From a bacterium (GTDB taxonomy: Bacteria > Patescibacteriota > Minisyncoccia > Phycocordibacterales > Zambryskibacteraceae), in the NCBI GenBank assembly GCA_030649135.1, contig JAUSGI010000006.1, positions 43,534-107,533 on the forward strand: a stretch of DNA of 64,000 nt, written 5' to 3'. Positions 57,217 to 60,729 of the stretch are shown here, one piece after another. A model generated the notes under the pieces. That model was not told the origin of the DNA. It saw only the letters and a list, made by a program, of their open reading frames with translations, and did no database searches. The stretch's first letter is position 1. The number at the start of each line of letters is the position of its first letter. Both the position numbers and the translations under genes were made by a program.

Positions 57217-57834
57217 CTAACGAGGATTAATATACTTCTGATAATGTGGATCATCCTTACTCATGTGTTTAGCAATGATGTCTCTGATAAATTCTGATTT
57301 GTTCATTTTGTAGTAAAAACTCGCCCAATCTAAATAATTTTCTATTGCTTTACTGAATATAATATTGAATTTAACAGTAGGGCTAGCGCTTTTGCTTAGA
57401 AAATGTGCAAGTATTCGCTTAATATCTTCTTTACTAGAATATCTTGCTATGGTGAGAAGTGGTGATTTTATTCCATTTATAAAAGAGTTTTGTAGTTTAT
57501 TCTTCTTGTCTGACCCGTCATTATAAAGAAGTACCAGTACCGGCTTATTTTTACTTAAGGCCAAAGTCATTTGATGTCCAATGCTAAAACTTGATACCGT
57601 TCCTTCTATTATAACGACGTCCGACGCCAATATAGACTCGATGGCTTTATTGTAGATTGCTACTCTGTCGATTTTGATTTTCCCCTTTTTATAGTCGCCC
57701 AAAGTTGCAACGGCGTTATCAATCCAATCCCTTGTTATGGTATGGCCCGTATCCCTAACAAGATTACATATATCCACGTAATTTTTGCCATATACCTCTA
57801 GCTCAGAAGTAGAGCATGCAAAATGTATCTTCAT
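57217..57834 (-). CDS. Rcl/nucleoside 2-deoxyribosyltransferase-fold domain fused to a C-terminal ribbon-helix-helix-like domain
   Basis: KIHFACS (compare KIYFxGS) and SDVVIIEGTVSSFSIGHQMTLALSKNKPVLVL (compare Rcl ADVVVAEVTQPSLGVGYELGRAVAFNKRILCL). The expected catalytic Glu aligns to Gln. C-terminal KFNIIFSKAIENYLDWASFYYKMNKSEFIRDIIAKHMSK has a beta-alpha-alpha RHH pattern. Confidence 0.45.
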   Translation of the reverse strand: MKIHFACSTSELEVYGKNYVDICNLVRDTGHTITRDWIDNAVATLGDYKKGKIKIDRVAIYNKAIESILASDVVIIEGTVSSFSIGHQMTLALSKNKPVLVLLYNDGSDKKNKLQNSFINGIKSPLLTIARYSSKEDIKRILAHFLSKSASPTVKFNIIFSKAIENYLDWASFYYKMNKSEFIRDIIAKHMSKDDPHYQKYINPR

Positions 57835-57884
57835 AGGTATAACGATACTATAATTTGCGTATTTTGTAAATGTCTCATTTCTAC

Positions 57885-57923
57885 TTGACTTCTATGTATG
57901 GCATATGTAAATATGTATGGTAT
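57885..57923 (+). promoter_or_regulatory. promoter TTGACT(17)TAAATA overlapped by a tandem direct repeat (putative operator)
   Basis: TTGACT at 57885..57890 and TAAATA at 57908..57913. Repeats TATGTATGGCATA (57893..57905) and TATGTATGGTATA (57911..57923), 18 bp period, overlap the spacer and the -10. Confidence 0.4.
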
Positions 57924-57962
57924 ACATACAACATTACAAATATCACAAATCGCCAACTAATT

Positions 57963-58718
57963 ATGTACACAAAAATTGAACCATTTGGATATGCTGTGTA
58001 CGGCGAATTAATTGGAAGCACATGGCTAAGTCTTGTCGAGGCTGTGGTTAAAAATGGCCAAATAACAACGGACGAGGGTAGAAAAAGATACTCTCTTCAA
58101 AATATACGAGTAAGATCAGCCACTTCGGCTAGAACAGATCCGCTAATAGCTAAATATGCAAACCAGCAAAATATTGCGGAGATAGTGAAACTCACTTTTA
58201 ACAAAGATCTTATGTATGACATAGACGTAACTCCGTCATTTACTCCTGGGGCGCAAAGTTATTACGCCAGAATTAAAAATTGGAAAATGCTTGATTTCAT
58301 TGTGGGCAGGCTCACAGAAATACCGGAATCAAAAAAGGCGGTAATGTCTTTTATCAGAGAGGAAGATTATATTAAGGTTTTAAAAAACCCAAAAGATGAC
58401 TATTTGCCATGCATTACAACCATACAGTTTAGATTATTAAAAATAGATAATGAAAAAGGGTACCATATGAATATCATTTTTAGTGCCAGATCTATGGATG
58501 CCTACCAAAAATCTATCGGTAACTTGGTAGCCATTGCCATACTGGGGGAAGAAGTGGCAAAACGACTGAAAAAAAATCTGGGGGTTCCCGTCTGGGAAGG
58601 AAGCATCGATGGACTAATAACTGATGCGCATATTTACGACAACACAATAGACGAAGCCAGAAAACTATTAGAATCCTACAAAAAAATAGAGAGCAATGAG
58701 TCACATGAAAAAGCGTAA
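57963..58718 (+). CDS. thymidylate synthase (ThyA)-fold enzyme, divergent (thymidylate synthase or a pyrimidine-deoxynucleotide hydroxymethylase)
   Basis: Aligns to ThyA blocks: YLPCITTIQFRL (compare LAPCHAFFQFYV, catalytic Cys kept, His replaced by Ile); IFSARSMDAYQKSIGNLVAIAIL (compare [21 protein letters not shown]); ITDAHIYDNTIDEA (compare GDTHLYSNHMDQT). N-terminal folate/dUMP-binding blocks are poorly conserved. 252 aa from ATG 57963. Confidence 0.65.
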   Translation: MYTKIEPFGYAVYGELIGSTWLSLVEAVVKNGQITTDEGRKRYSLQNIRVRSATSARTDPLIAKYANQQNIAEIVKLTFNKDLMYDIDVTPSFTPGAQSYYARIKNWKMLDFIVGRLTEIPESKKAVMSFIREEDYIKVLKNPKDDYLPCITTIQFRLLKIDNEKGYHMNIIFSARSMDAYQKSIGNLVAIAILGEEVAKRLKKNLGVPVWEGSIDGLITDAHIYDNTIDEARKLLESYKKIESNESHEKA

Positions 58719-59283
58719 GAAAGTAGTAGTATTTGAAGGAATTGATGGTTCGGGAAAATCGACCCAAGCTCGCTTGCTATATTTTGCTCTTAAAAAAAGA
58801 AATATTTCTGCAGACTTATACCACTTCCCATCGGAGGGTATCATAGGAAAATTTGTTAGGAGTCTTTTGGAGAAGGAAGAATTTGACACTTTGGATTCAA
58901 AATCCCGTGCACTACTTACTGCTTCAGACTTTTACAGCCAATATCACAGGAGCAATAATGATTCGGATATGATTATATTTGACAGATATTTTCATTCCAG
59001 TTATGCATCTAACGATGCCTTAGACGAAGAGTGGATTAAGGCAATACATCAATATGCGCCAGACCCGGATATTGTTTTCTTTTTGGACGGAGAACCGAAA
59101 TCAATCAAAGAAAGGGATGGCATTGATTCCGGTGCAAAAAATGAAGCGAGGCAAAAAATGCTCAGCATTAGATATAAAAAGATATTTGAGAATATACCCA
59201 ATATCACCATCAATGCCAACAAAGATATTGAAACAACGCATCAAGAGGTGCTACAGACCGTTATTAAAAAATTAAATATATGA
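58696..59283 (+). CDS. tmk: thymidylate kinase-family (d)NMP kinase
   Basis: P-loop VVFEGIDGSGKST; FPSEG...IGKFVRSLL (compare TREPGGT...LAEKLRSLL); DRY motif IFDRYFHSSYA; LID-like region. Overlaps the upstream gene by 23 nt. Confidence 0.8.
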   Translation: MSHMKKRKKVVVFEGIDGSGKSTQARLLYFALKKRNISADLYHFPSEGIIGKFVRSLLEKEEFDTLDSKSRALLTASDFYSQYHRSNNDSDMIIFDRYFHSSYASNDALDEEWIKAIHQYAPDPDIVFFLDGEPKSIKERDGIDSGAKNEARQKMLSIRYKKIFENIPNITINANKDIETTHQEVLQTVIKKLNI

Positions 59284-60161
59284 TAAACATAGAAGGAGAA
59301 CTAAAAATGGAAGACAAGGTAAATGAGGACATGGATTTATTAAAATCCCTTGATGACTTGTTTACTGTAAAAAGAGGCTTTGTGATAAAAATGCCGCCAA
59401 AGGGAGAATCGGTAGCTGCTTGTTTATCTGGTGGTATGGACTCGGTTACCAATATAGCAATGCTCATGAAAGAATATGGTTTAAAAGTGTATCCATTTTT
59501 TATTAACAGGGGACAATCCAATTATGTTTACGAAAAAAAGGCGGCCGATTATTTTAATTCCTTTTTTAAAGAAAAGTTTCCCGACCTATACAATGATTAT
59601 CTTGAAATTACAGTAATGACTCCCGGGGAAGAATATAAAGACTTGCTTCGCGATGCCAAGAGGCTGGTTGACCCCTTACCATTGCGCCACAATGTATCTT
59701 ACCCATCAAGAAACCCTATAATATTCTTAACAGGGATGGAGTATGCTTATTCCTTAAAAGCAAAGGGGGTTGAAATTAAAACAATGTTCGCATCTTATGT
59801 CTCTTCCGACTCATCTTATCACTGTGGTTTAACAAATACTCGTTTGATGAATGTGCTGATGTGTCAGATACTAAACGATTGGAATTGGCAATTTATTTCC
59901 ATCCCAATAGAGCGCGAACTGGGAAACTTTTTCGACAAAGACGTGTATGTCAAATGGGGTTACGAGAACAATATTCCCCTCCACTTTTCAAGGACATGCG
60001 TTAAACACTTTGATGTCGAGTGCGGAGACTGCCCGACCTGCTGGGACAGAAGAAGGGGTTATAAAGAAGCCGGTATTGATGATCCGACCCCATATAAATA
60101 TGAGATGTCCTCAGAATTCCCAACCTATTACGACCATGAAAAAGAAGAGCAGATGCAATAA
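59280..60161 (+). CDS. QueC-family PP-loop ATP pyrophosphatase with about 45 aa N-terminal extension
   Basis: PP-loop LSGGMDSVT; FINRGQS (compare FDYGQR); PSRNPIIFLTGMEYAYS (compare PGRNILFLTLASIYAYQ); C-terminal Zn motif CGDCPTCWDRRRG (compare CGxCxxCxxR). Start overlaps the tmk stop (ATGA). Confidence 0.7.
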   Translation: MINIEGELKMEDKVNEDMDLLKSLDDLFTVKRGFVIKMPPKGESVAACLSGGMDSVTNIAMLMKEYGLKVYPFFINRGQSNYVYEKKAADYFNSFFKEKFPDLYNDYLEITVMTPGEEYKDLLRDAKRLVDPLPLRHNVSYPSRNPIIFLTGMEYAYSLKAKGVEIKTMFASYVSSDSSYHCGLTNTRLMNVLMCQILNDWNWQFISIPIERELGNFFDKDVYVKWGYENNIPLHFSRTCVKHFDVECGDCPTCWDRRRGYKEAGIDDPTPYKYEMSSEFPTYYDHEKEEQMQ

Positions 60162-60165
60162 TAAT

Positions 60166-60729
60166 ATGAAAATAGAAACAGAAATTAAATTAGCAATAGA
60201 AGAATCCTCAATAAAAGACGTCATTGCTAGAATCGAACAAGAGTTCGATTGTAAAAAATCTGACCCTTTCCTCCAGACTACGCATCAATTCTTTTTCGAA
60301 GATCATACAAAACAAAAGGCCTTCCCAAGAATCCGTAACGAAGAGAACGGGAGCATTACTTTAACTGTAAAAGCCAAACTAAAAGAAACTAGTGAATTCT
60401 TTAAACGAATAGAGTTGGAAACGACTATTACTAATGCCGAGAAGGTTATCGACATGATGCCATTTTTTGGCTTCCCTAAAAAAATCTCCTGGGAGAAAAA
60501 GCGTCATTCTTTTTTAATGAACGGCGATACTGATGTATGTTTTTTCCTGGATGAGACTCCTATGGGTTGGTTTTTAGAAATTGAGGCGGAGGAAAGTAAA
60601 ATAGAAGAAGCTATTACTAAACTTGGACTACAAGAAGCCCAAAGAATTAATGGGGCTTATCTGGGTCTATGGGAGAAATATAAAAAAGAGCACAATATTT
60701 CTAGGGATAATATGATGTTTGGTGCGTAG
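60166..60729 (+). CDS. CYTH-domain (triphosphate tunnel metalloenzyme) protein
   Basis: N-terminal ExExK signature (MKIETEIKL) and an alternating charged beta-strand pattern. 187 aa from ATG 60166, 4 nt after the QueC-like stop. The track's longer ORF 59947..60729 overlaps the previous gene. Confidence 0.55.
   Translation: MKIETEIKLAIEESSIKDVIARIEQEFDCKKSDPFLQTTHQFFFEDHTKQKAFPRIRNEENGSITLTVKAKLKETSEFFKRIELETTITNAEKVIDMMPFFGFPKKISWEKKRHSFLMNGDTDVCFFLDETPMGWFLEIEAEESKIEEAITKLGLQEAQRINGAYLGLWEKYKKEHNISRDNMMFGA

Follow-up and report, generated by a model that had tools for sequence, protein, structure and literature searches.

A putative nucleotide-sensing ribbon-helix-helix regulator built on a disabled nucleotide glycosidase, divergent from a ThyA-like operon in a patescibacterium

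Within the window (the whole 64,000-nt stretch of patescibacterial DNA analysed here), a gene for a 205-aa protein is read from the minus strand and, across a 128-nt intergenic region, an operon that begins with a ThyA-like gene is read from the plus strand. The features discussed below are as follows.

57217..57834, minus strand: regulator gene, 205 aa, a predicted Rcl/NDT-like pseudo-glycosidase with a C-terminal ribbon-helix-helix (RHH) domain (from the ORF, homologues and an AF2 model)
57388..57834, minus strand: DNPH1/Rcl-MilB-NDT fold, putative nucleotide-sensing domain, residues 1-149
57571..57573, minus strand: codon CAA for Gln88, at the site of the nucleophilic Glu (rat Rcl E93, human DNPH1 E104, MilB E103)
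57253..57378, minus strand: predicted RHH DNA-binding domain, residues about 153-194 (strand VKFNIIF, helix 162-175, loop NKS, helix 179-194)
57842..57870, minus strand: the regulator's own predicted promoter, TTTACA-N17-TATCGT, its -10 ending 7 nt before the ATG in a leaderless-like manner (promoter scan)
57885..57913, plus strand: candidate promoter of the ThyA-like operon, TTGACT-N17-TAAATA, assignment uncertain (read from the sequence)
57893..57905, no strand: candidate auxiliary operator copy TATGTATGGCATA, right half ATATGTA degenerate (repeat match)
57912..57928, no strand: candidate core operator, perfect 7-3-7 palindrome TATGTAT-GGT-ATACATA (conservation across loci)
57963..58718, plus strand: ThyA-like enzyme of 251 aa, opening the divergent operon (PF00303, 9e-8)
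58696..59283, plus strand: dTMP-kinase-like (d)NMP kinase, sharing 23 nt with the ThyA-like gene (PF02223, 4e-26)
59280..60161, plus strand: QueC-like PP-loop ATPase (PF06508, 1e-10; phrog_1550, 1e-20)
60166..60729, plus strand: CYTH (triphosphate tunnel) protein, at the end of the operon (PF01928, 1.4e-6)

The ThyA-like enzyme retains the catalytic Cys (in a PC motif) and RS.D in alignment, and carries an Asn at the position of N177 in thymidylate synthase (TS) and D179 in dCMP hydroxymethylase. Against the PDB, its ThyA-domain profile matches the CMP 5-hydroxymethylase MilA best (2e-10), with thymidylate synthases at 2e-9. The (d)NMP kinase scores 91 bits against TIGR00041 (cutoff 83). The cassette sits within a 3.7-kb low-GC island, and its gene order is rearranged between genomes; related loci fall into two arrangements, here called types A and B, which share the CYTH protein as a conserved partner and of which type B carries an additional SAM methyltransferase. 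At the N177/D179 position noted above, the ThyA-like enzymes have Asn in type A and Asp in type B. A ThyA-like gene lies beside the regulator in 26 of 29 loci whose regulator is at least 39% identical to the query (at least 46% in 28 of them, three of these loci duplicating another contig or region). Two other assignments of the cassette are unsupported. For a phage hypermodification module, a tblastn search with the regulator found nothing in 50,697 phage records, and the ThyA-like protein matches phage TS and dCMP hydroxymethylase genes at only 24-25%; for a defence system, PADLOC returned weak matches only, to the kinase and QueC.

The sequence-only reading of this locus had described a 205-aa protein with an Rcl/NDT fold at its N-terminus, and the protein is borne out by the open reading frame and by 95 full-length homologues of ~205 aa each. 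The KIxFxxS start is found as K2, I3, F5 and S8, and the segment D72-V-V-I-I-E77-G-T79-V-S-S82-F-S84-I-G86-H-Q88 fits the Rcl-type motif DVVVAEVTQPSLGVGYE except at its first Gly, which is Ser84 here. In structure (AF2 model of the whole regulator, pLDDT 84), the N-domain superimposes on MilB, Rcl and NDT with a flavodoxin-like alpha/beta fold, as had been expected, and the regulator-family profile matches Rcl/DNPH1 over residues 3-144 (E 2e-5 to 1e-3). While PF05014 matches 19 of 42 relatives, it does not match the 205-aa query itself, and direct scans of the protein against Pfam, NCBIfam, PADLOC and PHROGs gave no match.

The substitution of Gln for the nucleophilic Glu, also proposed earlier, holds: in the HMMER alignment the regulator's GHQ lies opposite GYE of rat Rcl, which places Gln88 at the nucleophilic site. 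This Gln is invariant in 36/36 close homologues and, across 151 family representatives, position 88 is Q in 100, E in 20 and hydrophobic in about 20. The Rcl/DNPH1 alignment maps DNPH1 Y24, D80 and E104 onto H4, A64 and Q88—i.e., the catalytic Tyr/Phe (Y24/F17) is replaced by His4 and the catalytic Asp (DNPH1 D80, MilB D78) by Ala64, with Asp at that position in 0/151 representatives. As aligned, two catalytic-triad residues are lost to non-catalytic ones (Asp to Ala64, Glu to Gln88) and the Tyr has become His4. The same alignment maps DNPH1 E55/H56 onto the invariant R35/D36, and the phosphate-binding Ser is kept as Ser82 (DNPH1 S98, MilB S97; Ser in 105/151 representatives). About 13% of the wider family retain the Glu, and some of these members might keep the chemistry.

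These residues bear on whether the N-domain could be a working N-glycosidase of the MilB, BcmB and DNPH1 kind, one that frees the 5-modified base from the product of the ThyA-like enzyme and acts as a pathway enzyme or as a PutA-like bifunctional protein. The type B SAM methyltransferase recalls the bacimethrin cluster, which includes one. Glu77, Asp36 and Arg35 are invariant among close homologues and could in principle form a different active site, and MilA/MilB (PMC4081090) likewise combine a ThyA-like enzyme with an Rcl-fold protein. Yet the triad reads H4, A64 and Q88, with two of three positions non-catalytic; ~13% of the family have a hydrophobic residue at position 88, and none of the 151 representatives has the Asp; and the equivalent E-to-Q (DNPH1) and E-to-A (MilB) mutants are inactive, DNPH1 E104Q binding hmdUMP without cleaving it and MilB E103A being inactive (PMC10603095, PMC4081090). 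We therefore consider a working glycosidase distinctly improbable. With Glu and Asp lost (and Tyr changed to His4) but Ser82 and a strongly conserved pocket kept, binding without cleavage is the most likely behaviour.

A conserved fold could instead serve as a ligand-free oligomerisation scaffold, making the protein a constitutive autorepressor or a copy-control-type RHH protein of a mobile cassette. DNPH1, MilB and NDT are obligate dimers or hexamers (PMC10603095), and the low-GC island and its rearranged gene order would suit such a cassette. However, the invariant residues S8, R35, D36, S82, S84, G86 and Q88 sit at the nucleotide-contact positions of DNPH1/MilB, a clustering unexpected for a pure scaffold, and we regard this alternative as improbable.

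[quoted passage not shown] The predicted C-terminus is an extended segment followed by two main helices (AF2 domain model, pLDDT 91.5), a single-chain model being unable to form the beta-ribbon, and its best Foldseek matches are NikR, ORF56, YiiF, Reg576, CopG, Arc, TacA, PutA-DBD, AmrZ and ParD; about 18 of the 20 best matches are RHH proteins, at TM 0.62-0.71 but with E-values of 0.5-5. In hhalign, the domain aligns in register with residues 1-49 of E. coli NikR (probability 70%, E 4e-5), pairing K/R-F-N-I-V-L with R-V-T-I-T-L and NKSEFIR with NRSEAIR. The RHH domain is present in 146/151 family representatives and its strand motif R/K155-F-N157 is kept in about 130-146 of them. Other sequence comparisons gave little: the C-terminal profile had no match among PDB sequences, hhalign found none to CopG, and per-member Pfam scans returned marginal matches only, to RHH_1, DUF6364 and HicB-like families. 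Taken on its own, the sequence evidence for an RHH domain is weak.

If the protein binds DNA, the intergenic region offers a candidate site. The sequence-only reading had described a tandem direct-repeat operator there, made of two 13-nt repeats spaced 18 bp apart. The repeats exist—TATGTATGGCATA at 57893-57905 and TATGTATGGTATA at 57912-57924, identical at 12/13 positions—but they lie 19 nt apart start to start, with a 6-nt gap. The element is likewise conserved upstream in orthologous loci, although the conserved core is an inverted repeat (the 7-3-7 palindrome, which takes in the second of these repeats) to which the other copy is auxiliary. Shuffles of the 128-nt intergenic region produce an equally good repeat in 1% of cases and a perfect 7-3-7 palindrome in 1.8%. 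Across loci the conserved pattern is T(A/G)TGTAT-N3-ATACA(C/T)A; of 32 related loci (251,791 nt), 19 contain it, each exactly once, versus none of 50 shuffles, every occurrence lies at the promoter of a regulator/ThyA-like unit, and within the 64-kb window the palindrome is unique at 0 mismatches. In the type A intergenic alignment, it is also the block with the highest conservation. The auxiliary copy is less conserved: its 19-nt spacing to the core is retained in loci L009, L001 and L011, it is absent from L014 and L016, and its type B equivalent, the proximal site, reads ...ACATATATACACAA. In L011 the palindrome remains at the promoter of the ThyA-like operon while the regulator lies ~3 kb away behind its own promoter, which has no operator. 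Distant family members, in unrelated contexts, also have related TGTAx...xTACA palindromes upstream. The two arms of the palindrome were compared for strict compensatory changes; position 2 (R) and its mirror (Y) vary independently, so covariation gives no argument for the palindrome.

An AT-rich intergenic region might carry such repeats by chance, or they might belong to a transcribed RNA hairpin or leader instead of a protein site, and an 81-nt stretch can indeed fold to -13.4 kcal/mol. This fold has a z-score of only -1.2, however (24/200 shuffles fold equally well), a Rfam search gave no relevant match, the arms show A/C mismatches and not compensatory pairs (L003, L004), and the type B palindrome lies upstream of the -35 and so is untranscribed in that direction. 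The 19 occurrences of the palindrome, moreover, face none in shuffles, and we judge chance or an RNA element to be very improbable. From its sequence and placement, the palindrome is quite likely to be bound by the regulator.

How the candidate operator is placed relative to the promoters determines what such binding would do. The proposed promoter of the ThyA-like operon is present as TTGACT (57885-57890), a 17-nt spacer and TAAATA (57908-57913), but a consensus scan does not call it, since the sixth base of TAAATA is not T. Only the closest relatives share the TTGACT hexamer, and type A loci as a group do not conserve the proposed hexamers. TAAATA, a candidate -10, probably belongs to the conserved operator, as type B loci have the same block, read as ACTTAC from the opposite strand. 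With the palindrome only 34 nt ahead of the ThyA-like ATG (57963), a promoter of this operon could not avoid overlapping the operator. The regulator's own promoter is conserved in L009, L011 and L012, including loci without an operator beside the regulator. Type B loci have a conserved TTGCxx-N17(TGn)-TATAxx promoter. In 14 of these loci both elements were located, and in 13 of the 14 a fixed 19 nt separates the palindrome from the promoter downstream of it. The scan rule demands T at -7, leaving these promoters uncalled, and they rest on phylogenetic conservation. The divergent arrangement of regulator and ThyA-like operon, noted in the sequence-only reading, is true here but a minority among orthologues, in most of which the regulator itself heads the ThyA-like operon.

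This geometry can be read in two ways. The same protein and operator might activate the ThyA-like unit, or regulate it dually in the manner of AmrZ or H. pylori NikR: the type B palindrome ends exactly 19 nt upstream of the -35 in those 13/14 loci, which puts its centre near -63 and the proximal site near -42, both classical activator positions. On the contrary, the type A palindrome lies 25-39 nt from the ThyA-like ATG and must thus overlap either the core promoter or the start of the transcript—the geometry of a repressor—while the type B proximal site abuts the -35 and could occlude it, and a single sign for both arrangements is more parsimonious. We consider activation or dual regulation unlikely, and lean, if only slightly, towards repression rather than activation.

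Taken together, we propose that the 205-aa protein is a nucleotide-sensing, one-component RHH repressor derived from a pseudo-glycosidase, an assignment that we hold to be reasonably probable. In the proposed mechanism, the C-terminal RHH domain would dimerise and read T(A/G)TGTAT-N3-ATACA(C/T)A, and would also read the adjacent degenerate operator copy; the half-site centres are ~10 bp apart, so that the half-sites fall on one helix face. The N-domain, presumably descended from DNPH1/Rcl-MilB N-glycosidases of 5-hydroxymethyl-pyrimidine nucleotides, would most likely bind a pyrimidine (deoxy)nucleoside 5'-monophosphate without cleaving it, and probably adds a second dimer interface that couples RHH dimers. 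Because the operator would cover the promoter/start region of the divergent ThyA-like/dNMP-kinase/QueC-like/CYTH operon, the regulator would repress that operon. A nucleotide ligand related to the ThyA-like reaction is suggested more tentatively; the best candidate would be either the ThyA-like enzyme's substrate or its 5-modified product, modulating DNA binding.

Several known systems share parts of this design. NikR likewise joins an RHH domain and a ligand-binding oligomerisation domain in one chain, acts at a two-fold symmetric operator and aligns in register over the RHH sequence; in NikR, however, the RHH is N-terminal rather than C-terminal, the sensor is an ACT-like tetramerisation/metal-binding domain rather than an Rcl/NDT-fold pseudo-enzyme, and the operator half-sites are separated by about 16 bp, whereas those of the regulator's candidate operator are adjacent (7-3-7). 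The small RHH proteins Arc, Mnt, CopG, MetJ, omega and ParD/TacA share the beta-alpha-alpha fold and short repeated operator subsites at a promoter, but they are 45-105 aa long and either have no sensor joined to them covalently or use a peptide or SAM as co-repressor (MetJ), whereas the regulator has a 150-aa nucleotide-binding-type domain ahead of its RHH. Among enzymes, DNPH1/Rcl (a 5-hydroxymethyl-dUMP N-hydrolase) and MilB (an hmCMP N-glycosidase) have a Y/D/E triad where the regulator has H/A/Q, and differ from it also in that the regulator carries an extra DNA-binding domain and is a predicted nucleotide binder, not a cleaver. The MilA/MilB and BcmA/BcmB pairs (mildiomycin, bacimethrin) resemble the locus in that a ThyA-like C5-modifying enzyme is encoded beside an Rcl/NDT-fold protein; here the Rcl-fold domain is without catalytic residues and carries an RHH, and the CYTH, dNMP kinase and QueC-like partners differ from the partner genes in the antibiotic clusters. 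The proposed logic is shared by NrtR (Nudix-like plus wHTH) and B. subtilis PurR (PRTase-like plus wHTH), in which an enzyme fold that no longer catalyses but still binds substrate senses a nucleotide-related metabolite for a fused DNA-binding domain, though the sensor (Rcl/NDT) and DNA-binding (RHH) folds of the regulator differ from theirs and there is no sequence relationship.

The fusion family comprises at least 1,500 clusters at 50% identity, mostly from Patescibacteria (CPR), a group of ultra-small bacteria of which most are uncultured. Searching the literature for the fusion architecture or the cassette yielded nothing relevant, in line with the earlier remark that the architecture was not familiar as a described regulator class, and the family is without a name. 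The distant members examined showed no ThyA linkage, so the association does not generalise to the whole family, and the ligand may vary or be something other than a ThyA product. Judged from sequence, these proteins probably represent an undescribed but widespread type of regulator: a disabled nucleotide-cleaving enzyme, probably a nucleotide sensor, fused to a DNA-binding domain.

To our knowledge, almost nothing is known of transcriptional regulation and ligand sensing in Patescibacteria; the size of the family and a recognisable cognate operator candidate offer a testable pairing of regulator, operator and candidate ligand. If non-cleaving binding is true, the regulator would be a natural counterpart of the engineered E-to-Q substrate trap DNPH1 E104Q. 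The finding also points to a conserved, mobile ThyA-like/CYTH nucleotide-modification cassette. A bolder reading, which we hold to be speculative, is that of a major unrecognised regulator family of Patescibacteria in which a fossil hydroxymethyl-pyrimidine-nucleotide glycosidase senses a 5-modified pyrimidine (deoxy)nucleotide and controls a mobile cassette—a MilA-like ThyA homologue, a dNMP kinase, a PP-loop ATPase or SAM methyltransferase and a CYTH protein, horizontally mobile—through which a cellular organism produces a non-canonical pyrimidine nucleotide. Were this so, that nucleotide could serve DNA/RNA hypermodification, antimetabolite or antiviral chemistry. Should the ligand be a 5-hydroxymethyl or other 5-modified pyrimidine nucleotide, the regulator would be their first described dedicated sensor, and could be engineered into a biosensor.

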